From positions 1 to 64,000 of the forward strand of contig BROI01000031.1 in the NCBI GenBank assembly GCA_027923505.1: DNA of 64,000 nucleotides. The letters run 5' to 3'. The translations under genes were made by a program, and so were the position numbers. This document shows positions 3,231 to 57,701 of the stretch, in pieces; the stretch's first letter is position 1, and every line of letters begins with the position of its first letter. Origin of the DNA: Mayamaea pseudoterrestris (taxonomy: Eukaryota). The notes below the pieces were generated by a model. It did not search any database, was not told where the DNA came from, and saw only the letters and a program-made list of their open reading frames with translations.

Positions 3231-3776
3231 CACGTTCCCACCAGAAGGCACATCACGCCATTGGTTGGTTGGCAGCGGGAGCGTCTGACCAAGGCAATCG
3301 CCAAGCTCCATGGCTGTTCTAACGTCGCTCGCAGCAAGTACGTACCAGTCACGGAAGAAGAGAAGGAAGAATTCGAGAATCAGCAAATCTTCATGTACAC
3401 TGCGTTTCGCAATTGTCTCGAAGTCCCTGGACACCAGTCGCTCCTAATGAAGTACGGTGACAAGTCCGGACGCTCAGAGCTGTTCTATCGCGAACTTCGC
3501 GACCAAGTTTGGTTCCGGCGAGTTAGCTACCATCCAAGCGAACGAACTGCAAGCCAAGCTTGCGCGATCGCTTAGGTTCGCCGACCGACACACAAGTTCC
3601 TAAACTACATGAACAGCTCATGAAGAATTAGTTCCGTCCTGGCGGATGACAAGAAGAAGTACTACTGGCTCCGAGCTGCAGTGGAAGGCGACGAAGAATT
3701 CGGTTCCCACGTGCCCACCAGACTCATTTGAACGACGACGCATCATCAGCGCAAACGGTGACCCAGACGCCGTCAC

Positions 3777-5015
3777 GTGAAGATTATGACTGTCTTTTCG
3801 ATCGCGCGCGCTCTTGCGCGTCGAGAGCAAGCAAGGGCAAGAAGAACGCCGACAGCCAAGCGAACAACGCCGAACACTTCCAGGCAAGGACGTGGTAATG
3901 GACGCGGTTCCGGTCGTGGTGGAGGACGCGGGCGCCAAGGCGGACGCGGCGGTGGACGAGGTGGACGTGGTTCCTGGGCGAGCCGTGGTTCCGGAGGACG
4001 AGGCTCTTCCGCGCCACTACCAGCAGCCGGTACGCAAGCGCATCGGGAACGATTCCCTGGTGATTATCTGAACTTTGAACAGTTGTTGCAGACCCCTGGT
4101 CTACATTCGTCAGGTGAACGACTCGGCCGACTTAACGAGGACGAATACGCTCAGCTCATGGCTCGACGCGAAGCCGTCCCAAGACCCGCCACGACAAGAC
4201 GCGCGAACAATGGCAACCGTGCGAATAACCAGCAGTCACAAGCGGCTGCCTCGGTGCCTGGTACAATCTTGTATCAGAATGACGCTGTCTCGATTGCCCC
4301 GACGACAGCCACTCAAGGTGCACCGGATGACATGATTAGATCTTTCCTTGCGAACGCCGCGTCGTCTCGCACTCAAGCTGCGAATAACACCCAGCAAGAG
4401 TTTATGGGAAGCGACGGCCGCCGGTACCGCGCAATGGTATCGGTGCGCTACACTGTGAATCGAGCTCGCAGCAACGAGACCCGCCAAGGATCGCTGATTG
4501 ACGGCGGTGCGAACGGTGGACTCGCTGGAAGCGATATGAGAATCTTGAGTACTACCAACCACACGTGTAACGTGACAGGTTTGAGCGACCACACGGTTCG
4601 CGACCTCCAAGTCGGAACTGGCGTCGCATTGATTGAGACTCGGACTGGACCCATTATCGGTCAGTTCAACCAGTATGCTTTGTACGACGGTGCTGAATCC
4701 ATTCATGCACCATCGCAGCTTCGTTCGTTCGGCCATCTGATCGACGACGTCGCTCGCTCCCAGAATGGAGCACAAGCCATTGTCACCAGTTGTGGCAAGA
4801 CCATCCCCTTGGCGATCCGTGACGGCTTGCCTCGTATGGATATGCGTCCACCGACGGACGCAGAGTTGGAAATGTATCCGACGGTCATTTTCTCTGCGGA
4901 CACCCTTTGGGATCCGGCGGAGTTGGATAATGAATGGAACGAAGAAGAACTTGAGTTTAATCGTCAACGGCCAATTGGAAGAAGCCCACGGTTTCGTCGA
5001 CGCCCGCATGGATGA
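3777..5015 (+). pseudogene. gag: Copia gag C-terminus (RGG-rich) plus aspartic protease, copy 1; frameshifted near 4960
   Basis: RGG-rich tract GRGNGRGSGRGGGRG and protease motif LIDGGANGGLAG. Upstream gag-like fragments at ~3240-3776 are disrupted. Confidence 0.8.
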
Positions 5016-6465
5016 CTTCGGCGACGCCACCTACCGGAACAACATGAACTCAGTGGAACGTGTGGTGCAGTATGTCGATCGCAATCAGGCTGATACGACG
5101 CGCCAAGCCAATGCACGACGCATAATGCCACAAGAACCTGACTACCAAGCGCTTCGACCCTACCTTGGCTACACGCCACTTGAACGAGTCAAGCGCACCA
5201 TTAAGAATACGACACAGCTTTTCCGTGCATCGGCACACACCCCATTTCGCCAACACTTTAAGTCGCGATTCCCTGCCGCCAATGTGGTTCGTTTCCATGA
5301 CGATACGGCGACAGATACCTGGTTTTCCAAGGAAGCCGCCTTTAACGACGGAATCCGCGGCCATGGCGGATGCAAGATGATGCAACTGTTCGTCGGCAAG
5401 AAGAGTCTGCTGACGAGGGGATACCCACTGAGAACCGAGAGTGACATGCCCATGGCGCTCGAAGACTTCATTCGAGACATTGGCGCTCCCGACTTGCTCA
5501 TTAGCGATAACTCGCGAGTGCAGCTCGGGAAGCAAGTTGAAACCTTGTTGCGATTCTACGCGATTCGTGACCAACAGAGCGAGCCCGGATACCAGAACCA
5601 GAACCCTGCCGAGCGTCGCATCCAAGAAGTCAAGTCATCAGTCCAGAACATCATGAACCGTACGGGCGCACCCGCTGGAGCCTGGCTCCTATGCGCACTG
5701 TACGTAATCGCCTTATTCAACAATCTGGCGACCGAGTCCCTCAACTGGAAGACCCCTACTGAAGCCGCCTTCAACCGAGTACCCGACATTTCGCCGTTCC
5801 TGCAGTTCAAGTTCTGGGAACGAGTCCTGTACGAAGCTGGAGCCGACGAGCCGCCGACATTTCCTCACACCAAGGAAGCAGCAGGACGCTGGGTCGGCAT
5901 TGCAGAGAACAAGGGTGACATCCTCACGTACCAAGTTCGATCCGATCGGACTGGAATGGTTGTCGTCCGATCCAACGTTCGTCCCTTCTCCGAAGGGCGT
6001 AACCTACGCGCTGAAGCTGAAAGCGCTCCTGAACCCGAGTCCGAACGACCACTGTTCGCGGAACCTGTCTTCGACGCGCGCCCCGCGCGTGAACGAGTCC
6101 AAGTCGAAACTGTCGACGAGTTTGACGATGAGTATGACCTAGTCGGTCCGGTGTTTGAACACGACCTTACACCGACCCCAGCGCCTGATTCTGGGGGAAC
6201 CGTGGATGAAGACGCATTCACGTTGGAAAGCGCTGCCGAGTTAGCCGGTTTGGATCCTGACGGACCCATGCCGTCCTTTACTCCGGCTGAACTGATGGGA
6301 CGCACTGTCCTTCTTGACGAGGAAGACGGCTCCACGCGACGTTACAAGGTTATCGAGCAACTGAACGATCGCGATGAAGCCAACCACAAGATCATCAAGT
6401 TCCGATTGAGTCTCGGAGACGGCGACGTCGACGAGCTTATTACCAATGAACTAGCCGATCCGTGA
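4960..6465 (+). pseudogene. pol: Copia integrase region, copy 1 (within ORF 4765-6465)
   Basis: DDE-type motifs ATDTWF, LISDNS and QNPAERRIQEVK; separated from both flanking ORFs by frame changes. Confidence 0.88.
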
Positions 6466-8497
6466 GCGGCAAGATTCTTTACGACTGGGGGACGATGACA
6501 ACGACGACCAGTACTACAAGTTTGATTTCATTGACGGACATGAAGGTCCACTGACACAAGCCGACGCTACGTATCGCGGCTCATCCTACAACTTGCTCAT
6601 CCAATGGGCAAATGGCGAGAAGACCTGGGAGCCACTCGCATTGATTATCAAGTCCGACCCTGTGACCGTTGCCGAGTACGGCAAGCGCAAGGGTATGCTG
6701 GACAAGGATGGATGGAAGCGCTTGAAGCGCATGGCAGGACGCACTAAAATGTTTAACCGCATGTGCAAGGCTGCAAAGAAGAACCGTGTCCAAGAAGCGC
6801 GTTTCAAGTTTGGCGTTCAAGTTCCTAATACCTGGAAGGAAGCGAACCGCCTCGACGCTGCTAATGGAAACACCCTGTGGGCTGACGCCGTCAAGACTGA
6901 GATGGAGCAGCTACACGAGTACGACACTTTCATCGACAAGGGCATTGGTGCCTTCATGGAAAGTGACTGGAAGCGCATCAACGCGCATCTTGTTTTCGAC
7001 TGCAAGAACGATCTACGACGTAAGGCCCGACTCGTCGCCGGGGGACATTTGACCGCTCCGCCCAAGGACTCCGCCTACTCCGGCGTTGTATCTATGCGAA
7101 GCATTCGAACCATAGCACTGTTAGCTGAACTGAACGACCTCAAGTTTTGGGCTGCCGATGTCGGTAACGCCTACCTCGAGGCCAAGACCAAGGAAAAGGT
7201 CTACATTGTTGCCGGTCCCGAGTTTGGACCATTGGAAGGCCATACCTTGGTCATCTACAAGGCACTTTACGGATTGCGCACTTCTGGCGCGCGTTGGCAT
7301 GAGCACTTTGCCGACACACTCCGCGACATTGGATTCTACCCAAGCTACGCGGACCCTGACGTCTGGATGAAAGACTGTGGCACTCACTACGAGTACGTCG
7401 GCGTGTTCGTCGACGATCTGGCTATGGCCATGAAAGATCCACAAGCCTTCACGGACCTCCTCAAGGAGAAGTACAAGTACAAGTTGAAGGGCGTCGGCGA
7501 CATCAAGTACCACCTTGGAGCCGACTTCTATCGGGTGCCGGATGGAACCCTCTGCATGAGCGCGAAGACCTACGTCGGTCGCATGCTCAAGAACTACGAA
7601 ACCATGTTTGGCGAGAAGCCACGCAAGCGCAAGTCACCGCTTGACGACGGGGACCACCCCGAACTTGACCTAACCGAAGAGCTGGATGCCCGTGGCATTC
7701 AACAGTACCAGTCTCTTATCGGTGCCCTCCAGTGGGCAGTGACCCTATGTCGACTTGACATTCATTGTGCCGTAATGACACTTGGCCGATTCCGCTGCGC
7801 CCCGCGCCGTGGACACCTGGACCGAGCCAAGCGAGTCTGCGGTTACCTAGCTGAGTACCCTGATGCGGCGATTCGTTTCCGGACGAAGATCGTCGATCAC
7901 GGGGAACCTACCAAGTATGATTGGTTGCAATCGGTCTACGGCAACTCAAGCGAAGAGCTTCCGTGGAACATGCCGATCCCGAAGGGCAAGCCTGTGCAAC
8001 TAACTACCTTTATGGACGCGAACCTGTACCATGATTACACTACTGGACGTTCCGCAATGGGAGTCCTGCATTTCCTGAACCAGACGCCCGTCGAATGGTT
8101 CTGCAAGCGTCAGAATACTGTTGAGACTGCAACGTACGGATCCGAGTTCGTCGTCGCCAAGACCGCGACGGAACAGATTATGGATTTCCGATACTCCCTA
8201 CGCATGTTGGGAGTTCCTTTGAGTGGACCAGCCTGGATGTTCGGCGACAACGAAAGTGTCAAGAAGTCGTCAACGATCCCGCACTCCACACTTTCTAAGC
8301 GACACAATGCGCTCGCCTACCACCGAGTTCGCGAGGCCATTGCAAGCAATGTTCTGTACTTTGAGCACATCTTCGGCAAGCAGAACGTCGCCGACGTTCT
8401 TACCAAGTTCTTGCCGCATGCCACGTTCCGACCCCTGATCATTCCGATTCTTTTCTGGAAGGGTGATACGGCAAACCGATCGTTGTCACAAGCCTAG
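6464..8497 (+). CDS. pol: Copia chromodomain-like segment, reverse transcriptase and RNase H, copy 1 (ORF 6593-8497; frame open from ~6464)
   Basis: RT motifs KARLVAGG, ADVGNAYL, KALYGLRTSG, FVDD; RNase H motifs DANL, TYGSEF, GDNES, NVADVLTK. Confidence 0.93.
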   Translation, partial: ERQDSLRLGDDDNDDQYYKFDFIDGHEGPLTQADATYRGSSYNLLIQWANGEKTWEPLALIIKSDPVTVAEYGKRKGMLDKDGWKRLKRMAGRTKMFNRMCKAAKKNRVQEARFKFGVQVPNTWKEANRLDAANGNTLWADAVKTEMEQLHEYDTFIDKGIGAFMESDWKRINAHLVFDCKNDLRRKARLVAGGHLTAPPKDSAYSGVVSMRSIRTIALLAELNDLKFWAADVGNAYLEAKTKEKVYIVAGPEFGPLEGHTLVIYKALYGLRTSGARWHEHFADTLRDIGFYPSYADPDVWMKDCGTHYEYVGVFVDDLAMAMKDPQAFTDLLKEKYKYKLKGVGDIKYHLGADFYRVPDGTLCMSAKTYVGRMLKNYETMFGEKPRKRKSPLDDGDHPELDLTEELDARGIQQYQSLIGALQWAVTLCRLDIHCAVMTLGRFRCAPRRGHLDRAKRVCGYLAEYPDAAIRFRTKIVDHGEPTKYDWLQSVYGNSSEELPWNMPIPKGKPVQLTTFMDANLYHDYTTGRSAMGVLHFLNQTPVEWFCKRQNTVETATYGSEFVVAKTATEQIMDFRYSLRMLGVPLSGPAWMFGDNESVKKSSTIPHSTLSKRHNALAYHRVREAIASNVLYFEHIFGKQNVADVLTKFLPHATFRPLIIPILFWKGDTANRSLSQA

Positions 8498-8500
8498 ATC

Positions 8501-8508
8501 AAGGGGGA
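8501..8508 (+). other. Polypurine tract of copy 1 (copy 2 at 13506-13513)
   Basis: AAGGGGGA immediately before the TG of the LTR. Confidence 0.85.
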
Positions 8509-8837
8509 TGACACAATATTATTGAGTTGAGTTGACCTGCGTCTTATGACAAGACGGTTAGCTACCTGTGTTTTGTATGCATTTAATCCTGTGCAGGGTT
8601 GAGTCACACTTGTGACCGAATCCTCACATACATGAGTGAAATCGCTGACGATCGAGGCGTGAACCTCGACCGTGAACCCAGTGAGAACGAGAAAGAAGCG
8701 CACGAGTAGAGTAGCGAGTAACATGCACTATTCTAGCAATTGAGTTTGTTTGTTTGCTTTACGCTGGACGAAGAGGTTGATCGCTCCGAGTCCATTGTAG
8801 TCGCTGGAATAAAGGTTCGTCTGATATTATCGTGTCA
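8509..8837 (+). repeat. Complete 329-bp LTR
   Basis: TGACAC...GTGTCA terminal inverted repeats and AATAAA near the 3' end; appears identical to 13514-13842. Confidence 0.96.
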
Positions 8838-10020
8838 AAGGGCAAGAAGAACGCCGACAGCCAAGCGAACAACGCCGAACACTTCCAGGCAAGGACGTGG
8901 TAATGGACGCGGTTCCGGTCGTGGTGGAGGACGCGGGCGCCAAGGCGGACGCGGCGGTGGACGAGGTGGACGTGGTTCCTGGGCGAGCCGTGGTTCCGGA
9001 GGACGAGGCTCTTCCGCGCCACTACCAGCAGCCGGTACGCAAGCGCATCGGGAACGATTCCCTGGTGATTATCTGAACTTTGAACAGTTGTTGCAGACCC
9101 CTGGTCTACATTCGTCAGGTGAACGACTCGGCCGACTTAACGAGGACGAATACGCTCAGCTCATGGCTCGACGCGAAGCCGTCCCAAGACCCGCCACGAC
9201 AAGACGCGCGAACAATGGCAACCGTGCGAATAACCAGCAGTCACAAGCGGCTGCCTCGGTGCCTGGTACAATCTTGTATCAGAATGACGCTGTCTCGATT
9301 GCCCCGACGACAGCCACTCAAGGTGCACCGGATGACATGATTAGATCTTTCCTTGCGAACGCCGCGTCGTCTCGCACTCAAGCTGCGAATAACACCCAGC
9401 AAGAGTTTATGGGAAGCGACGGCCGCCGGTACCGCGCAATGGTATCGGTGCGCTACACTGTGAATCGAGCTCGCAGCAACGAGACCCGCCAAGGATCGCT
9501 GATTGACGGCGGTGCGAACGGTGGACTCGCTGGAAGCGATATGAGAATCTTGAGTACTACCAACCACACGTGTAACGTGACAGGTTTGAGCGACCACACG
9601 GTTCGCGACCTCCAAGTCGGAACTGGCGTCGCATTGATTGAGACTCGGACTGGACCCATTATCGGTCAGTTCAACCAGTATGCTTTGTACGACGGTGCTG
9701 AATCCATTCATGCACCATCGCAGCTTCGTTCGTTCGGCCATCTGATCGACGACGTCGCTCGCTCCCAGAATGGAGCACAAGCCATTGTCACCAGTTGTGG
9801 CAAGACCATCCCCTTGGCGATCCGTGACGGCTTGCCTCGTATGGATATGCGTCCACCGACGGACGCAGAGTTGGAAATGTATCCGACGGTCATTTTCTCT
9901 GCGGACACCCTTTGGGATCCGGCGGAGTTGGATAATGAATGGAACGAAGAAGAACTTGAGTTTAATCGTCAACGGCCAATTGGAAGAAGCCCACGGTTTC
10001 GTCGACGCCCGCATGGATGA
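8838..10020 (+). pseudogene. gag: Copia gag C-terminus plus protease, copy 2 (5'-truncated, fused directly to the LTR end)
   Basis: Matches 3833-5015 at an offset of 5005 bp. Confidence 0.8.
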
Positions 10021-11470
10021 CTTCGGCGACGCCACCTACCGGAACAACATGAACTCAGTGGAACGTGTGGTGCAGTATGTCGATCGCAATCAGGCTGATA
10101 CGACGCGCCAAGCCAATGCACGACGCATAATGCCACAAGAACCTGACTACCAAGCGCTTCGACCCTACCTTGGCTACACGCCACTTGAACGAGTCAAGCG
10201 CACCATTAAGAATACGACACAGCTTTTCCGTGCATCGGCACACACCCCATTTCGCCAACACTTTAAGTCGCGATTCCCTGCCGCCAATGTGGTTCGTTTC
10301 CATGACGATACGGCGACAGATACCTGGTTTTCCAAGGAAGCCGCCTTTAACGACGGAATCCGCGGCCATGGCGGATGCAAGATGATGCAACTGTTCGTCG
10401 GCAAGAAGAGTCTGCTGACGAGGGGATACCCACTGAGAACCGAGAGTGACATGCCCATGGCGCTCGAAGACTTCATTCGAGACATTGGCGCTCCCGACTT
10501 GCTCATTAGCGATAACTCGCGAGTGCAGCTCGGGAAGCAAGTTGAAACCTTGTTGCGATTCTACGCGATTCGTGACCAACAGAGCGAGCCCGGATACCAG
10601 AACCAGAACCCTGCCGAGCGTCGCATCCAAGAAGTCAAGTCATCAGTCCAGAACATCATGAACCGTACGGGCGCACCCGCTGGAGCCTGGCTCCTATGCG
10701 CACTGTACGTAATCGCCTTATTCAACAATCTGGCGACCGAGTCCCTCAACTGGAAGACCCCTACTGAAGCCGCCTTCAACCGAGTACCCGACATTTCGCC
10801 GTTCCTGCAGTTCAAGTTCTGGGAACGAGTCCTGTACGAAGCTGGAGCCGACGAGCCGCCGACATTTCCTCACACCAAGGAAGCAGCAGGACGCTGGGTC
10901 GGCATTGCAGAGAACAAGGGTGACATCCTCACGTACCAAGTTCGATCCGATCGGACTGGAATGGTTGTCGTCCGATCCAACGTTCGTCCCTTCTCCGAAG
11001 GGCGTAACCTACGCGCTGAAGCTGAAAGCGCTCCTGAACCCGAGTCCGAACGACCACTGTTCGCGGAACCTGTCTTCGACGCGCGCCCCGCGCGTGAACG
11101 AGTCCAAGTCGAAACTGTCGACGAGTTTGACGATGAGTATGACCTAGTCGGTCCGGTGTTTGAACACGACCTTACACCGACCCCAGCGCCTGATTCTGGG
11201 GGAACCGTGGATGAAGACGCATTCACGTTGGAAAGCGCTGCCGAGTTAGCCGGTTTGGATCCTGACGGACCCATGCCGTCCTTTACTCCGGCTGAACTGA
11301 TGGGACGCACTGTCCTTCTTGACGAGGAAGACGGCTCCACGCGACGTTACAAGGTTATCGAGCAACTGAACGATCGCGATGAAGCCAACCACAAGATCAT
11401 CAAGTTCCGATTGAGTCTCGGAGACGGCGACGTCGACGAGCTTATCACCAATGAACTAGCCGATCCGTGA
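9965..11470 (+). pseudogene. pol: Copia integrase region, copy 2 (within ORF 9770-11470)
   Basis: Same translation as copy 1. Confidence 0.88.
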
Positions 11471-13502
11471 GCGGCAAGATTCTTTACGACTGGGGGACGA
11501 TGACAACGACGACCAGTACTACAAGTTTGATTTCATTGACGGACATGAAGGTCCACTGACACAAGCCGACGCTACGTATCGCGGCTCATCCTACAACTTG
11601 CTCATCCAATGGGCAAATGGCGAGAAGACCTGGGAGCCACTCGCATTGATTATCAAGTCCGACCCTGTGACCGTTGCCGAGTACGGCAAGCGCAAGGGTA
11701 TGCTGGACAAGGATGGATGGAAGCGCTTGAAGCGCATGGCAGGACGCACTAAAATGTTTAACCGCATGTGCAAGGCTGCAAAGAAGAACCGTGTCCAAGA
11801 AGCGCGTTTCAAGTTTGGCGTTCAAGTTCCTAATACCTGGAAGGAAGCGAACCGCCTCGACGCTGCTAATGGAAACACCCTGTGGGCTGACGCCGTCAAG
11901 ACTGAGATGGAGCAGCTACACGAGTACGACACTTTCATCGACAAGGGCATTGGTGCCTTCATGGAAAGTGACTGGAAGCGCATCAACGCGCATCTTGTTT
12001 TCGACTGCAAGAACGATCTACGACGTAAGGCCCGACTCGTCGCCGGGGGACATTTGACCGCTCCGCCCAAGGACTCCGCCTACTCCGGCGTTGTATCTAT
12101 GCGAAGCATTCGAACCATAGCACTGTTAGCTGAACTGAACGACCTCAAGTTTTGGGCTGCCGATGTCGGTAACGCCTACCTCGAGGCCAAGACCAAGGAA
12201 AAGGTCTACATTGTTGCCGGTCCCGAGTTTGGACCATTGGAAGGCCATACCTTGGTCATCTACAAGGCACTTTACGGATTGCGCACTTCTGGCGCGCGTT
12301 GGCATGAGCACTTTGCCGACACACTCCGCGACATTGGATTCTACCCAAGCTACGCGGACCCTGACGTCTGGATGAAAGACTGTGGCACTCACTACGAGTA
12401 CGTCGGCGTGTTCGTCGACGATCTGGCTATGGCCATGAAAGATCCACAAGCCTTCACGGACCTCCTCAAGGAGAAGTACAAGTACAAGTTGAAGGGCGTC
12501 GGCGACATCAAGTACCACCTTGGAGCCGACTTCTATCGGGTGCCCGATGGAACCCTCTGCATGAGCGCGAAGACCTACGTCGGTCGCATGCTCAAGAACT
12601 ACGAAACCATGTTTGGCGAGAAGCCACGCAAGCGCAAGTCACCGCTTGACGACGGGGACCACCCCGAACTTGACCTAACCGAAGAGCTGGATGCCCGTGG
12701 CATTCAACAGTACCAGTCTCTTATCGGTGCCCTCCAGTGGGCAGTGACCCTATGTCGACTTGACATTCATTGTGCCGTAATGACACTTGGCCGATTCCGC
12801 TGCGCCCCGCGCCGTGGACACCTGGACCGAGCCAAGCGAGTCTGCGGTTACCTAGCTGAGTACCCTGATGCGGCGATTCGTTTCCGGACGAAGATCGTCG
12901 ATCACGGGGAACCTACCAAGTATGATTGGTTGCAATCGGTCTACGGCAACTCAAGCGAAGAGCTTCCGTGGAACATGCCGATCCCGAAGGGCAAGCCTGT
13001 GCAACTAACTACCTTTATGGACGCGAACCTGTACCATGATTACACTACTGGACGTTCCGCAATGGGAGTCCTGCATTTCCTGAACCAGACGCCCGTCGAA
13101 TGGTTCTGCAAGCGTCAGAATACTGTTGAGACTGCAACGTACGGATCCGAGTTCGTCGTCGCCAAGACCGCGACGGAACAGATTATGGATTTCCGATACT
13201 CCCTACGCATGTTGGGAGTTCCTTTGAGTGGACCAGCCTGGATGTTCGGCGACAACGAAAGTGTCAAGAAGTCGTCAACGATCCCGCACTCCACACTTTC
13301 TAAGCGACACAATGCGCTCGCCTACCACCGAGTTCGCGAGGCCATTGCAAGCAATGTTCTGTACTTTGAGCACATCTTCGGCAAGCAGAACGTCGCCGAC
13401 GTTCTTACCAAGTTCTTGCCGCATGCCACGTTCCGACCCCTGATCATTCCGATTCTTTTCTGGAAGGGTGATACGGCAAACCGATCGTTGTCACAAGCCT
13501 AG
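11469..13502 (+). CDS. pol: Copia chromodomain-like segment, RT and RNase H, copy 2 (ORF 11598-13502)
   Basis: Same translation as copy 1. Confidence 0.93.
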   Translation, partial: ERQDSLRLGDDDNDDQYYKFDFIDGHEGPLTQADATYRGSSYNLLIQWANGEKTWEPLALIIKSDPVTVAEYGKRKGMLDKDGWKRLKRMAGRTKMFNRMCKAAKKNRVQEARFKFGVQVPNTWKEANRLDAANGNTLWADAVKTEMEQLHEYDTFIDKGIGAFMESDWKRINAHLVFDCKNDLRRKARLVAGGHLTAPPKDSAYSGVVSMRSIRTIALLAELNDLKFWAADVGNAYLEAKTKEKVYIVAGPEFGPLEGHTLVIYKALYGLRTSGARWHEHFADTLRDIGFYPSYADPDVWMKDCGTHYEYVGVFVDDLAMAMKDPQAFTDLLKEKYKYKLKGVGDIKYHLGADFYRVPDGTLCMSAKTYVGRMLKNYETMFGEKPRKRKSPLDDGDHPELDLTEELDARGIQQYQSLIGALQWAVTLCRLDIHCAVMTLGRFRCAPRRGHLDRAKRVCGYLAEYPDAAIRFRTKIVDHGEPTKYDWLQSVYGNSSEELPWNMPIPKGKPVQLTTFMDANLYHDYTTGRSAMGVLHFLNQTPVEWFCKRQNTVETATYGSEFVVAKTATEQIMDFRYSLRMLGVPLSGPAWMFGDNESVKKSSTIPHSTLSKRHNALAYHRVREAIASNVLYFEHIFGKQNVADVLTKFLPHATFRPLIIPILFWKGDTANRSLSQA

Positions 13503-53867: not shown

Positions 53868-53915
<48 letters not shown>
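53868..53915. repeat. (AGC)16 microsatellite
   Basis: Pure trinucleotide run of 48 bp. Confidence 0.95.
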
Positions 53916-53916
<1 letters not shown>

Positions 53917-54300
53917 AGTAGAACATGGTGAGACGAGCAGCCATCATCAACTCCCTCGTCTCGTACATTTGCTTGCAAAATGACGTCTCCGTCGCAGCCT
54001 GCAATGTCATTCATCCGCAACAAGAATTGCAGTTGCTGCTGCTTCCCAAGAGACTAGTCAGGACGAACATGTTTCGTAATTGATTGCAAGGGGCGATAGC
54101 TCTGGCGGAAAAGGCGTCACCATGCCAAGCAATTTGACAGCACATGGAAACGGCCAAGGTGGGAGCCGCCATGCCAATTGATCGGCCCTCTTGGTGTCAC
54201 GTTCCGGCACCATCGAGAGGTATGTATGGTATATGAATAACAGCGTTGTTTTCATAATAGAATATGTACTTGAAGCTCATACATATATCGTTCGCCTTTC

Positions 54301-55353
54301 TCAATAAAATTCTATATGATCCTCGCCTAGGTCGTTTCGCACATGTGTTCCAGCATCTCTCCTCAATATCTTGTCCGCATCGTTCAACGAGCCAATCGCT
54401 CCATAGCCGCCACCACCACCGCTTTTAGCGGCAAACTCGCACACTGCGTCTACCTTTGGACCCATTGAGCCGCTTGGAAAATGACTCATGAGTGACAATA
54501 GCTTTTCAGGCGAGACTGACTTGATCCATCGTTCGTCCTTGGTCTTGTAATCGATGGCGACTGCGGAAACATCCGTCAAAATTAGTAAACCAGTGGCGTC
54601 TAAATCCAGCGCCATCATGCACGCTGCGCGATCCTTGTCAATGACAGCTTCCACACCGCGAATGGTACCATCTTTTTCTTGGACAACGGGTATGCCACCA
54701 CCTCCGGCGCAAATCACGACGCAGTCTTGTTTGGTCAAGCACTTGACGGCTTGCAGCTGACTCGGGAGCATTCGAATCGGCGGAGGCGAAGGCACTACCC
54801 GACGATAGCTGTCACCGTCTTGCTTGAATGTTCCATCCAACTTGTCTGCTTCCTCTTTGGAAAAGACGGGGCCGACAAACTTGGATGGATTGTCAAAGGC
54901 TGGATCCGATGGATCCACTATAATCTGCGACAAGACGGTCGCCATGCCGCGCGTTGGAGATATGTACTTTTGCATGGCCTGCTCCAGCAAGTATCCAATC
55001 ATGCCTTCAGTCTCGGCGTCGAGAACATCCAACTTGATAGCTTCTAGACCAGTCTCCTTCTTATAGGAGGTTGTTTCCAGGAATAGTAAACCAACCTGCG
55101 GGCCATTGCCATGAACTATTGTAACGGTGTGTTCATCGAGCAGTCCTTTGAACGATTTCATGCCCTCCTCAATGTTGCGACGCTGATTGTCCATGGTCAT
55201 TTGCTCGTTTCGCTTCAGCAAAGCGTTTCCGCCCAAAGCCACGACAATGTGCGGTTTGCTGCTTGCCGACACGAGACGACTTTGTAGTGCAACGACAACT
55301 GATCGAGCCGTCCTGCGAATTGCATACCTCTTATCAAGCAAATTGGATAGCAT
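54301..55353 (-). CDS. arcC: Carbamate kinase with an Arg/Ser-rich N-terminal extension (possible mitochondrial presequence); intronless
   Basis: [52 protein letters not shown] and GSMGPKV motifs. Confidence 0.96.
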
Positions 55354-55721
55354 TTTGCGTCTGACGTTGAGTGAGGTTATCACGGTTGTCAATGATACTG
55401 AGCGAGGCTGGTATTGATACAGAGCGAGTTTGATAATGATATTAGTCGGAAGCGTCGCCTTCTACAGTTTTCTTACGCAAGGTCGAAAGCGAAGCTAGCA
55501 AACGCGAATTGCGATCGAGAAGTGAAGTGCTTCTAAACGTTCCACACGGCGATAGATACGTGACGAAAAGACTCTTTCGATCGCTCGCGAGCACTCGGAG
55601 CTCCGCCACTTTCGTCGGGTTCGCATCCGTCCCACGAGGAAGCTCTCACCGATTGGCACATAAAAACCAAAGCACCACGGCAATCATTTTTCACAAACGA
55701 AGATTATTGATCGATATCACC
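55354..55721. promoter_or_regulatory. Putative shared bidirectional promoter of arcC and the arcE-like gene
   Basis: 368 bp between the two divergent ATGs; the function is inferred from geometry only. Confidence 0.5.
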
Positions 55722-57366
55722 ATGCTGTCTTCATCTCGATTCCATGTCAAGCAGCTCGCCAAGAAGGGGCAAGACAATGTCCTCATTCTCGGCGCAGCAG
55801 GCCGCGATTTCCACGATGCCATGAGCTATTGGTTCCTTCTTCCAAACACCAAAGTCAAGGCTATAACGGCACAGCAGATTCCTGGAATCAACAAGCGAAT
55901 CTTTCCGCCGGAGCTTTGCCGTAACGACGAGAACGACAACTTGTACCCGCATGGAGTTCAGATACATCCTGAAGAGGAGTTGGAGTCGCTCATTAGCGGC
56001 ATGCAGGTGACTACTTGTGCTTTGGCGTACTCGGATCTAAAGTTTGAAACGGTTCAGGTAAGCAGGACAATTGACGCAAGATAAAAAAATTTGTGGAACA
56101 GTGATGAATCAACCCGCTCATACTATTCGCACTCTCCTTCACGTCAGTCCCTTGCTGCTCGGGTCAACGCGGCAGGAGCCAAGTTTGTCCAGTTGCCTCC
56201 CATTTTGACCATGCTTGAGTCAACCAAGCCAGTGATTGCCGTCTGTGCCAGTCGCACAGGCGTGGGCAAGTCGCAAACGACGCGCTACATTGCCAAGTAC
56301 TTGAAATCAAAGGGATTGAAAGTGGTTGCCGTTCGTCACCCCATGCCGTACGACAAGGATTTGCTTTCGCAGCGATGCCAGCGCTACGAAACATACCAGG
56401 ACATGGACAAGTACAATTGTACCATTGAAGAGCGCGAAGAGTATGATCGTCACATTGCCAGTGGCACGTTGCTCTTTGCTGGCGTCGATTATGAGATGAT
56501 TCTTCGCGAGGCCGAAAAGGAAGCGGACGGTAAGTCCTATTGGAGCGCAAGTATAACATTGCGAGAAAGATTGGGTAACTCACTCCAACATCTCTATATT
56601 ATAATATTATGTCTGCACCATTGTTTCAGTCATTATCTGGGACGGCGGCAACAATGACTCTCCATTCTATAAGCCTGACCTTCTCATTACGCTGGTGGAC
56701 TCGCTGCGCCCATTGGACGAGACTGGATACTATCCAGGCGAAACCAATGTTCGCATGGCCGACTTGATTGTGATTGCCAAGACGAATCAGTTGGATAGCT
56801 TGCAAACGGCGGTGCAGCACGAGCAAAAGCTGCGCGAAATTACGAAACCAGACATTCCCATTCTCTTTGGTGCGTCCATTGTGACACCCGAGGCGCGCGA
56901 CCCTGCCACGAACGAAGCACTTGGCGAAGAAGAAGCGACCGCCATGGTCAAGGGCAAGCGCGTCTTGGTGATTGACGACGGACCGACTCTGACGCATGGC
57001 GGCATGGCGTACGGCGCTGGCTACGTTCTCGCCAAGAATTTGGGCGCCAAGGAAATTGTTGATCCACGTCCCATCGCCAAGGGAACCTTGAAGGCCACCT
57101 TCAACAAGTTTACGCACTTGAAATCGGTCATTCCCGCCATGGGATACGGAGCGGAGCAGGTGCACGACTTACGGGAAACCATTGAGGCAGCCGACTGCGA
57201 TACGATTGTTCTTGGCACGCCCTTTGACATTAATCGCGTCATGAAGCTTGACAAGCCATTGGTGATTGCTCGCTATGAGCTCTCCATTCCTGACCACGAA
57301 GTGGTGTTGCAGGAGGCGATCAACTCGGTGTTGGATGAATTTGGACTCAGCTTTGCGGCGGCGTGA
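55722..57366 (+). CDS. arcE: COG2403-type P-loop NTPase (cPDGS-like family), probable arginine synthetase; exons 55722-56057, 56148-56529 and 56630-57366
   Basis: LILGAAGRDFH, AQQIPGI, LAYSDL, RTGVGKSQTTR (P-loop), VRHPMPY, CTIEEREEY, AGVDY, WDGGNND (restored by splicing), YYPGETNVRMAD, DDGPTLTHGGM and PAMGY motifs. Confidence 0.85.
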
Positions 57367-57701
57367 GGAAATGAAGTGAGTGCTGTGGCATGACAATACC
57401 ATGCATATCATTACAATTATAGCTTTAGAGACTTATAATTAGTACGTTACATTATATCAGTTGGTTGGTCATTTGCGCGTAAGGTAGATACATCGGTACT
57501 GTACGGCTTGCGTAGCTATTCTTGATAGCTTCGACATAACTGACACGTTAGCTAACATCGATCCGGCATTGAAAACCACGTCATCAGGCGAACTGGCATG
57601 CGTTGGAGAGCATGACCGAATGTGACCATGGCAAAGCAACCGCTGCAGGAGCCTCCATTCCCTCGCTTCAGTCTCTCGACATTAATCTTTACGAAATAAC
57701 C

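Follow-up and report, generated by a model that had tools for sequence, protein, structure and literature searches.

Do the two genes of prokaryotic ancestry that lie head to head in the genome of the diatom Mayamaea pseudoterrestris encode enzymes of one arginine pathway, and in which direction would such a pathway run? The question arises from a preliminary description of the window (the whole 64-kb stretch of DNA analysed here), which had placed a carbamate kinase (CK) gene on the minus strand and a three-exon P-loop gene on the plus strand, with starts 368 bp apart, and had read the latter as resembling arginine synthetase (ArcE) rather than cyclic 2,3-diphosphoglycerate (cDPG) synthetase. 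The coordinates confirm this arrangement (Table 1). ArcE of Thermococcus kodakarensis catalyses the reaction arginine + ADP + Pi <-> citrulline + NH3 + ATP (Michimori, Yokooji and Atomi 2024, PMC11032458; this and the other papers are cited here for parts of their text), and both this reaction and the pathway in which ArcE acts with ornithine transcarbamylase (OTC) and CK had been given correctly in the preliminary description, as the cited part of that paper bears out. The same paper already mentions that arcE occurs 'in a few eukaryotes'. Our literature searches found no paper on ArcE in diatoms, although Figures S10 and S11 of PMC11032458, in which the eukaryotes are named, may list some. 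In the main text of the M. pseudoterrestris genome paper, the terms carbamate, arginine, ornithine and urea cycle never occur.

The spliced product of the plus-strand gene is identical to a protein held at NCBI as 'hypothetical protein MPSEU_001036300 [Mayamaea pseudoterrestris]' (P0001 below), which has the same junction between exons 1 and 2 (...ETVQ/SLAARV..., the slash marking the junction). All six motifs previously claimed for the spliced protein are found in it: GAAGRDFH at residues 24-31, RTGxGKSQT at 148-156, RHPMPY at 175-180, TIEEREEY at 204-211, WDGGNND at 243-249 and DGPTLTHG at 356-363. Contigs from public runs of one study (X1 to X4, the kind of run not being on record) bear on the splicing. 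Both introns are skipped exactly (90 and 100 nt) in contigs of X3 and X4, and are retained in contigs of X1 and X2. The X3 and X4 contigs also contain pieces of the CK gene, and both genes are probably expressed, as read from these contigs.

Table 1. Features of the head-to-head gene pair, with positions counted from the first nucleotide of the window
Feature	Positions	Strand	Details
CK (arcC-type) coding sequence	54301..55353	minus	single exon, 350 aa; open reading frame read directly; start ATG 55353-55351, stop codon 54303-54301
Intergenic region between divergent start codons	55354..55721		368 nt, from coordinates
Imperfect 22-nt tandem repeat	55384..55427		repeat search; partial third copy 55430-55441
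ArcE-like P-loop gene	55722..57366	plus	three exons, spliced product 484 aa; ATG at 55722
ArcE-like exon 1	55722..56057	plus	residues 1-112, including GAAGRDFH
ArcE-like intron 1	56058..56147	plus	GT..AG, 90 nt; skipped in one contig each of X3 and X4
ArcE-like exon 2	56148..56529	plus	P-loop RTGVGKSQT, RHPMPY, TIEEREEY; phase 1 end
ArcE-like intron 2	56530..56629	plus	GT..AG, 100 nt; skipped in one contig each of X3 and X4
ArcE-like exon 3	56630..57366	plus	WDGGNND, DDGPTLTHGGM, PAMGYG; stop TGA 57364-57366

Since spliceosomal introns are removed in public contigs and the neighbouring genes are ordinary eukaryotic ones, the ArcE-like gene belongs to a eukaryotic nuclear genome. The neighbours, on both sides of the pair, encode a v-SNARE, a UBR-box ligase, a Myb protein and others, and the GC content of the pair (0.47-0.575) is close to that of its surroundings (0.425-0.54). 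Both CK and the ArcE-like gene are nuclear eukaryotic genes of prokaryotic ancestry.

Profile and PDB matches identify the minus-strand partner as a true carbamate kinase. The NCBIfam carbamate kinase model NF009008 scores 366.8 bits against a cut-off of 361, with a match that begins at residue 35, and TIGR00746 scores 319.9, under its cut-off of 358.25. Six solved carbamate kinases (8crv, 1e19, 2e9y, 3kzf, 1b7b and 4axs) match it over its full length, at residues 34-339, with E-values that range from 5e-72 (8crv_A, the best) to 3e-35. Among prokaryotic homologues, the window CK is 35-42% identical to the CKs that are linked to arcE, as compared with about 51% for its best matches. Allen et al. 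(2011) are reportedly the source for listing CK as one of the nitrogen genes that diatoms acquired horizontally. More recent work, in the parts cited, likewise treats diatom CK as a horizontally acquired gene, and one that is absent from Parmales (10.1101/2020.01.24.918219; PMC10328945).

The assignment of the plus-strand gene to the ArcE family, rather than to the cDPG synthetases, is supported by full-length sequence comparison. P0001 is identical at 236 of 471 positions (50%, E 1e-160) to P0285, a cluster representative from Thermococcus sp. 21S9, and at 233 of 466 (50%, E 7e-158) to P0304 from Pyrococcus furiosus, the comparison with the characterised enzyme being made through the genus-level orthologue cluster of T. 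kodakarensis TK2200 and not with TK2200 by name. The cluster, formed at 90% identity, comprises 201 proteins; among the 40 that were inspected, the 15 listed are from species of Thermococcus and Palaeococcus. Thermococcales throughout carry arcE homologues, with P. furiosus named among them, according to the cited part of PMC11032458. At the 113 near-invariant columns of the family (conservation of 97% or more across 233 prokaryotic rows), the window protein is identical in 99. The family motifs GxGKS, RHPMPY, EExEE, WDGGNND, DGPTxTHG and PAxGY are all intact, and every charged or polar motif residue is kept. The 14 columns that differ comprise conservative swaps (Y/F, E/D, I/V and L/I) and less conservative ones; N34M, M112Q and G129P are altered across most or all of the diatom clade.

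General resources give this family little by way of a name. Among 8000 candidates scored in a homologue search with P0001, 7791 matched at E<=0.001. Neither Pfam nor NCBIfam has a model for the ArcE family, the matches there being weak ones to the P-loop models CbiA/ParA of Pfam. Sequence and fold searches of the PDB found no ArcE structure, and matches in the Protein Atlas are to generic 'putative GTPase' or cDPG synthetase-like clusters. A scan of viral contigs found no relative. A scan of genome contigs with an A. boonei protein recovered no Thermococcus; the Thermococcales orthologues described above came from the protein search.

The best whole-chain structural match of the window protein is cDPG synthetase (Methanothermus fervidus, PDB 8ork and 8oru; also 9sxb), with a Foldseek E-value of 2e-17, and this enzyme is likewise a P-loop enzyme that uses ATP. 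By sequence, 9sxb_A matches the window protein with an E-value of 2.8e-4, and the cDPG synthetase profile matches with an E-value of 2.2e-10 over a partial stretch of about 110 residues. However, identity in the fold match to 8oru is 13%, the TM-score is about 0.4, the sequence match is partial, and the two families have different motifs. ArcE homologues are also linked to arginine genes and, unlike cDPG synthetase, not to compatible-solute genes. We therefore rejected cDPG synthetase as the identity of the window protein, given 13% identity to the M. fervidus enzyme and a partial profile match as against the 50% full-length identity to the Thermococcales orthologues. Many ArcE homologues are labelled 'cyclic 2,3-diphosphoglycerate synthase' at NCBI, and our comparisons do not back this label.

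Orthologues of the window ArcE occur in genomes and transcriptomes of at least 10 named diatom species, including Fistulifera, Amphora, Gedaniella, Thalassiosira profunda, Cyclotella and three species of Skeletonema. They form a single clade (17 rows, support 100), whose inner branching matches diatom taxonomy and whose stem is long and well supported (0.48 plus 0.30 changes per column). The nearest prokaryotic relatives are different for the window CK and the window ArcE. Of the idea that the pair is an operon-like module domesticated in a eukaryote, the domestication stands, in that these are nuclear, spliced eukaryotic genes. Transfer as a unit is less well supported: in addition to the different relatives, the trees disagree on the sister group of the diatom ArcE proteins, and the orientation is divergent. 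A hint of co-transfer was considered and dropped. FastTree had placed the CKs of two prokaryotic loci, L020 and L041, near the diatom CK clade, and had put the ArcE proteins of these CK-linked loci in the sister clade of the diatom ArcE proteins, but the latter placement was lost in IQ-TREE mixture-model trees.

The preliminary description had further proposed a survey of arcC-arcE synteny or fusion across stramenopiles. Linkage is recurrent in prokaryotes. A CK gene occurs at 20 of 160 prokaryotic arcE loci, and in 19 of these it lies just downstream on the same strand; an OTC-like gene likewise occurs at 20 of the 160, and nine loci have both. The CK-linked rows are scattered across the prokaryotic part of the ArcE tree. 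In the arcE-arcC(-arcB) operons (L124, whose gene order is permease-arcE-arcC-OTC, and L130, L155 and L158), arcE lies directly beside arcC, as it does in the window, often in the company of OTC and an amino-acid permease. The genes of these operons run in one direction and are tightly spaced: arcC follows arcE by 6-374 bp or is separated from it by OTC. The window pair, by contrast, is divergent, with 368 bp between the genes, which are monocistronic and spliced. We also found one natural CK::ArcE fusion (P0446, in which residues 3-309 form the CK domain and residues 328-744 the ArcE domain), which has no N-terminal extension. No such fusion belongs to the diatom clade among the 120 best 'longer' matches, the longest of which has 595 aa.

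Among diatoms, the genes are probably linked in species other than M. pseudoterrestris. Of ten diatom-clade ArcE matches on contigs longer than 8 kb, four share the exact size of their contig (8172, 13521, 32385 and 285053) with one of 24 CK matches, where 0.005 would be expected by chance; linkage is judged here by equal contig size only. In T. profunda, the ArcE and CK genes are on separate contigs, of 2.14 Mb and 1.26 Mb, and therefore linkage is not universal. A metagenome scan with P0001 returned 80 loci, nearly all prokaryote-like, and no diatom synteny. For two named genes among several thousand to be adjacent by chance is unlikely, with a probability that we estimate at roughly two divided by the number of genes.

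The 368-bp spacer is presumably a shared bidirectional promoter through which the two genes would be jointly regulated. It is covered by contigs of X1 and X2, and has little or no depth in X3 and X4. The spacer also contains the imperfect 22-nt repeat of Table 1, which is found upstream of the CK start codon, at a distance of 31-88 bp, and has a TGATA core in each copy. As a two-copy family, the repeat may be a chance match.

Mitochondrial co-targeting, which had been suggested for both proteins, is better supported for one of them than for the other. About 34 N-terminal residues of the window CK, with seven K/R and one D/E, precede the part that is conserved with prokaryotic CKs, and its homologues have long basic N-terminal extensions, so that CK is probably mitochondrial. 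For the ArcE-like protein the prediction is ambiguous: there are only about 14 extra basic residues at its N-terminus, and its diatom homologues vary, some having long, presequence-like N-termini and those of the Thalassiosirales type having no extension.

Taken as a whole, the pair probably represents an expressed nuclear diatom CK (ArcC) and an ArcE orthologue that, with an OTC encoded elsewhere, would constitute the arginine synthetase pathway. For the diatom pair, we infer enzyme activity, compartment and net direction of flux, as well as physiology, from sequence. In the catabolic direction, ArcE would convert arginine to citrulline with a gain of one ATP, OTC would convert citrulline and Pi to ornithine and carbamoyl phosphate, and CK would convert carbamoyl phosphate and ADP to carbamate and ATP. 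There is no OTC-like gene within the 64-kb window, and diatoms are reported to have OTC (PMC5052871, PMC10328945). The cited part of one of these papers also reports CK in multiple diatoms and dinoflagellates, and that arginine deiminase (ADI) was not detected in SAR, to which diatoms belong (PMC5052871). If ArcE takes the place of ADI, this would explain diatoms that have CK and OTC but lack ADI.

The distribution logic of the T. kodakarensis ArcE-ArcB-ArcC system may be the same, with CK present and, going by the literature on SAR, ADI absent, and the window protein shares with that system its family (50% full-length identity to the Thermococcus/Pyrococcus orthologues), its motifs and its CK partner. 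There are also differences. Compared with TK2200, the diatom gene is nuclear, has two spliceosomal introns and is head to head with CK, while OTC is unlinked; the diatom CK has a presequence-like N-terminal extension; and the host is a mesophilic phototroph, which also has carbamoyl-phosphate synthetase and a full urea cycle and whose ArcE-like enzyme is known by sequence. A second point of comparison is the ADI pathway of anaerobic protists (Giardia, Trichomonas and other metamonads), which, in the cited part of Novak et al. (2016, PMC5052871), is eukaryotic and laterally acquired, and likewise leads from arginine to ornithine, yields ATP and ends in carbamate kinase. ADI, however, is hydrolytic, so that no energy is conserved in its reaction, and it has no relation to ArcE. 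The cited part of Novak et al. describes no clustering of the genes.

The same enzymes could instead work in the opposite direction, in ATP-saving ammonium assimilation and arginine synthesis. CK would convert carbamate to carbamoyl phosphate at the cost of one ATP, OTC would form citrulline, and ArcE would aminate citrulline with free NH3 at the cost of a second ATP. With ammonium in ample supply, as upon nitrogen resupply or in photorespiration, this route would bypass carbamoyl-phosphate synthetase and argininosuccinate synthetase/lyase. We consider this the less likely direction, yet one to be taken seriously. The reaction that ArcE catalyses lies close to equilibrium (K = 10.1, deltaG0' = -6.8 kJ/mol at 80 C), and in T. 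kodakarensis ArcE supported arginine synthesis from citrulline in vivo (both PMC11032458). Moreover, a 2026 follow-up reports in its cited part that the arginine synthetase pathway supplies carbamoyl phosphate for biosynthesis (PMC13260591), and according to Ban et al. (PMC10328945) the CK of diatoms makes carbamoyl phosphate that the urea cycle uses. On the other hand, diatoms already have carbamoyl-phosphate synthetase and a complete ornithine-urea cycle (PMC10328945), which leaves no gap to fill, and the authors of the ArcE papers see the catabolic direction as the usual one (PMC11032458).

It is improbable, in our estimate, that divergence has given the diatom protein a different substrate or function (another ureido or guanidino compound, for instance, or another phosphoryl transfer), in which case the adjacency of CK would be a relic or a coincidence and diatoms would have no arginine synthetase pathway. 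The long stem of the diatom clade would fit such a change, as would the 14 of 113 near-invariant columns that differ, N34M, M112Q and G129P included. The Thalassiosirales-type ArcE proteins also lack the N-terminal extension that the CKs bear, so the two enzymes may sit in different compartments there, and the genes are unlinked in T. profunda. However, the retention of all charged and polar motif residues, the 50% full-length identity to Thermococcales orthologues, the recurrence of CK linkage and the existence of a CK::ArcE fusion argue against divergence. That the pair lies outside the diatom nuclear genome, through bacterial contamination or an assembly artefact, is hardly credible and in our view refuted: outside the diatom clades the relatives of both proteins are mainly prokaryotic, but the introns removed in public contigs, the eukaryotic genes on both sides, the matching GC content and the orthologues in other diatoms speak against it.

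Returning to the reading of the pair as ArcE and CK of an arginine synthetase pathway, we put forward a fuller model tentatively, as one that is somewhat more likely to be wrong than right: a reversible ArcE-OTC-CK shunt between arginine and ornithine, which would operate beside the diatom urea cycle, yield 2 ATP per arginine and be at least partly mitochondrial, and whose divergent, co-regulated nuclear gene pair would have been kept since before the split of pennate and thalassiosiroid diatoms. If this model is true, the shunt could draw ATP from arginine stores in the dark or at low oxygen and, when run backwards, could store ammonium in the form of arginine for half the ATP normally spent. 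It would also add a rare eukaryotic example of a pathway of prokaryotic origin whose genes have stayed clustered.

The pair would in itself be an example of two prokaryote-derived genes that have been kept as a nuclear pair. Diatom CK has so far been without a partner that feeds it from arginine, and an adjacent ArcE orthologue that is widespread in diatoms is a testable answer. For an enzyme described in 2024, diatoms would offer the first eukaryotic system of study. The ornithine-urea cycle is central to the handling of nitrogen pulses by diatoms, which are major primary producers, and ArcE would add to models of this cycle a reversible connection of arginine with ornithine that conserves energy.

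We identified two genes in divergent orientation among the open reading frames of the window, one encoding an ArcC-type carbamate kinase (CK) and the other a P-loop protein resembling the arginine synthetase ArcE. Their start codons lie 368 nt apart, as the preliminary description had measured, and the P-loop gene has two introns (90 and 100 nt), both with GT..AG ends. The spliced P-loop product of 484 aa is identical at every residue to database protein P0001, named by NCBI ‘hypothetical protein MPSEU_001036300 [Mayamaea pseudoterrestris]’; this gene model has thus already been deposited, without a function. All six motifs listed from the sequence alone are found in P0001. The repeat in the spacer between the genes could be a candidate regulator binding site or a chance match.

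Features of the gene pair and of the surrounding window
Feature	Position	Strand	Remark
Gene pair	54301-57366		divergent orientation
CK gene	ATG 55353, stop 54301	minus	single uninterrupted ORF, 350 aa
P-loop gene, exon 1	55722-56057	plus	start at 55722
P-loop gene, exon 2	56148-56529	plus	
P-loop gene, exon 3	56630-57366	plus	
Spacer repeat	55384-55441		imperfect 22-nt tandem repeat plus third partial copy, TGATA core in each
Vti1-type v-SNARE gene			eukaryotic, directly downstream
Other large ORFs			phosphodiester glycosidase, UBR-box ubiquitin ligase, Myb, ApaG, LRR, acyl-CoA oxidase, ZIP transporter, Copia-type reverse transcriptase
Skip in one X3 contig	54220-54330	plus	54217 joined to 54329, 111 nt, GT..AG ends
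Differing positions, X1 and X2	54403-57633		many
9 nt missing in X1	54410		in glycine run near CK C-terminus; would be in-frame
Loose contig ends	53152, 53759		one shared foreign sequence in X1, X3 and X4
(CAG)n run	~53870-53915		reads seemingly cut there
Tandem copies	3762-13502		two of ~4975 bp, same ORF set (417/427, 574, 680 aa)

No Pfam or NCBIfam model covers the P-loop protein, and its homologues are labelled ‘predicted GTPase’ (JGI) or ‘cyclic 2,3-diphosphoglycerate synthase’ (NCBI). The accessible part of Michimori et al. 2024 (PMC11032458) describes a characterised family member, TK2200 (ArcE) of Thermococcus kodakarensis, which catalyses arginine + ADP + Pi <-> citrulline + NH3 + ATP, and which together with ornithine transcarbamoylase (OTC) and CK forms the ‘arginine synthetase pathway’. 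In place of TK2200 itself, we compared the diatom protein with Thermococcales orthologues retrieved by a search from an Aciduliprofundum homologue. These orthologues comprise a cluster of 201 members at 90% identity (many Thermococcus species and Palaeococcus, judging by 15 listed of 40 members read) and, outside the cluster, Pyrococcus furiosus and P. horikoshii proteins. Over its full length the diatom protein shares 50% identity with both the cluster representative (236/471, E 1e-160) and its P. furiosus counterpart (233/466). An alignment of 233 prokaryotic homologues has 113 columns with conservation of 97% or more; the diatom protein is identical at 99 of them and retains all polar motif residues of the family. 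A cyclic 2,3-diphosphoglycerate synthetase is the best structural match (E 2e-17) to the confident AlphaFold model (pLDDT 91.6, pTM 0.91), yet identity is 13%, the sequence match is remote (E 2.8e-4) and the profile match partial (2.2e-10), and we reject this identity. By every available sequence test the protein belongs to the ArcE family, as the preliminary description had proposed. An intein bearing a LAGLIDADG homing-endonuclease domain interrupts one homologue, P0531 (806 aa).

The CK exceeds the curated cut-off of the NCBIfam carbamate kinase model NF009008 (366.8 bits, cut-off 361) and matches six solved carbamate kinases from about residue 35 to its C-terminal end. The roughly 34 residues ahead of the conserved core include seven K/R and one D/E. 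The 95 best-ranked homologues, approximately the eukaryote-like clade of 97 rows in the CK tree, have a median of 48 residues before the conserved CK motif, against 3 in 25 prokaryote-like matches, and in 76 of the 95 this segment has at least 25 residues and resembles mitochondrial presequences. Because of these long extensions, a mitochondrial location of the diatom CK is a reasonable inference. That half of the proposed mitochondrial co-targeting is well backed, whereas the ArcE half is ambiguous: the N-terminus of the window protein is extended by only about 14 basic residues (residues 1-14 are disordered in the AlphaFold model), and Thalassiosirales-type proteins begin at the conserved core, with no extension. 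Extensions of 28-77 residues in which R, S, A and L are abundant occur in eight homologues from the diatom clade (P0002, P0003, P0004, P0005, P0012, P0015, P0016 and P0019); one of them, P0016, falls into the same cluster as the Amphora protein at 90% identity. It is possible that ArcE is co-located with CK in pennates.

Four public runs (X1-X4), all from one study and with no run type on record, yielded contigs that contain the stretch. In X1 and X2 the contigs retain the two introns and extend across the intergenic spacer. Those of X3 and X4 skip exactly 90 and 100 nt, with GT..AG ends, at both introns, have little or no depth in the spacer and also include pieces of the CK gene, which is the behaviour of transcript assemblies. 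This is good evidence that both genes are transcribed and the introns spliced, though from a single study and so not independent. The large ORFs beside the pair are ordinary eukaryotic genes and the GC content of the pair is not distinct from its flanks; together with the spliced introns, these observations exclude contamination for practical purposes.

The same contigs show further features. The junction in X3 is antisense to the CK 3′ end and stop codon, its far side has 23 letters at depth 2.7, and it may reflect a spliced antisense or neighbouring transcript overlapping the CK 3′ end. The differences in X1 and X2 look like a second allele or haplotype, and the loose ends suggest an alternative sequence (haplotype or insertion/deletion) upstream of the pair. 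Elsewhere in the window, the tandem copies, whose 680-aa ORF has a Copia-type reverse transcriptase domain (RVT_2), look like a tandemly duplicated retroelement.

Every named diatom ArcE sequence falls in one 44-row clade (support 99) of a 280-row FastTree phylogeny, and the sampled diatom rows likewise form a clade (support 99 to 100) in IQ-TREE site-mixture trees. Inside it, the Thalassiosirales (Thalassiosira profunda, Cyclotella meneghiniana, Skeletonema menzelii, S. marinoi and S. dohrnii) branch apart from the raphid pennates; Mayamaea, Fistulifera, Amphora and Gedaniella represent the pennates. This branching fits a single ancient acquisition that was then inherited vertically. In the IQ-TREE analysis, a small sister group of the fetched locus L002 (1-3858) and the proteins P0044 and P0047 joins the diatoms at 99, and a branch with the same support of 99 separates both from the other 53-56 rows. 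This lineage is intron-less, and the upstream neighbour in L002, a 638-aa serine-rich, low-complexity protein with repeated Cys-pair (C..C) motifs, suggests that it is another eukaryotic group. The nearest prokaryotic rows to the diatom clade are Planctomycetota-like, and the trees do not settle the prokaryotic sister group. The diatom CK lies in the eukaryote-like clade of the CK tree, which includes a dinoflagellate sequence, in agreement with the large diatom-dinoflagellate clan in the accessible part of Novak et al. 2016 (PMC5052871). In the literature, as partly available, diatom CK is a known horizontally acquired gene, and Parmales are described as having no CK. Its nearest prokaryotic matches, for example a Xanthomonadales MAG (51% identity), are not arcE-linked CKs, which are 35-42% identical to it. 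Since, in addition, the prokaryotic sister group of the diatom ArcE is unsettled, these comparisons neither support nor exclude a joint transfer of both genes.

We compared the size of the longest contig for each of 10 diatom-clade ArcE and 24 CK matches on contigs above 8 kb, scoring identical sizes. Four ArcE/CK pairs have equal sizes (8172, 13521, 32385 and 285053), whereas jittered sizes gave 0.005 matches on average and at least two in 0 of 20000 runs; when contigs of every size were included, 12 of 5000 runs reached four matches. Judged by identical size, these are almost certainly shared contigs, and as two are short, ArcE and CK would lie within 8 to 13 kb of each other there. In Thalassiosira profunda the genes are on separate contigs. 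Linkage in diatoms thus seems common but not universal, the orientation being known from the window alone.

Among 160 prokaryotic arcE loci (80 from metagenomes, 80 from named genomes), 20 have a CK, 20 an OTC-like gene, nine both and 31 either; these counts are lower bounds, because many loci are short. The CK is downstream on the same strand in 19 of the 20, directly or behind OTC, and most prokaryotic subclades of the ArcE tree include CK-linked rows. One locus, L124, has the order amino-acid permease, arcE, arcC, OTC. After arcE-arcC-OTC, L124 (11184-13226) and similar loci carry an ORF of 680 aa that matches no Pfam model. Furthermore, an exhaustive search, of which the 150 best cluster representatives were considered, yielded one natural fusion, P0446 (766 aa), with complete CK (3-309; NF009007, 313.8 bits, cut-off 266) and ArcE (328-744) domains.

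Acting together, ArcE, OTC and CK would most likely break arginine down to ornithine, CO2 and two NH3, gaining two ATP, with ArcE in place of arginine deiminase (ArcA). The accessible part of Novak et al. (PMC5052871) reports CK in many diatoms and dinoflagellates and no arginine deiminase detected in SAR. The same combination, ArcC in the absence of ArcA, prompted the discovery of archaeal ArcE, according to the available text of PMC11032458. However, that text also places the ArcE reaction near equilibrium, and the pathway is described, in sources available in part, as able to produce carbamoyl phosphate or arginine, so the reverse, ATP-saving assimilatory direction is a serious rival to arginine breakdown. 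The 2024 paper on ArcE (PMC11032458) already mentions arcE homologues ‘in a few eukaryotes’. Our literature search found no paper connecting ArcE to diatom nitrogen metabolism or describing this gene pair, and the main text of the M. pseudoterrestris genome paper mentions none of these functions. The arginine synthetase pathway is itself known; what the predicted genes would add is its setting in a eukaryotic phototroph and its encoding by a divergent nuclear gene pair.
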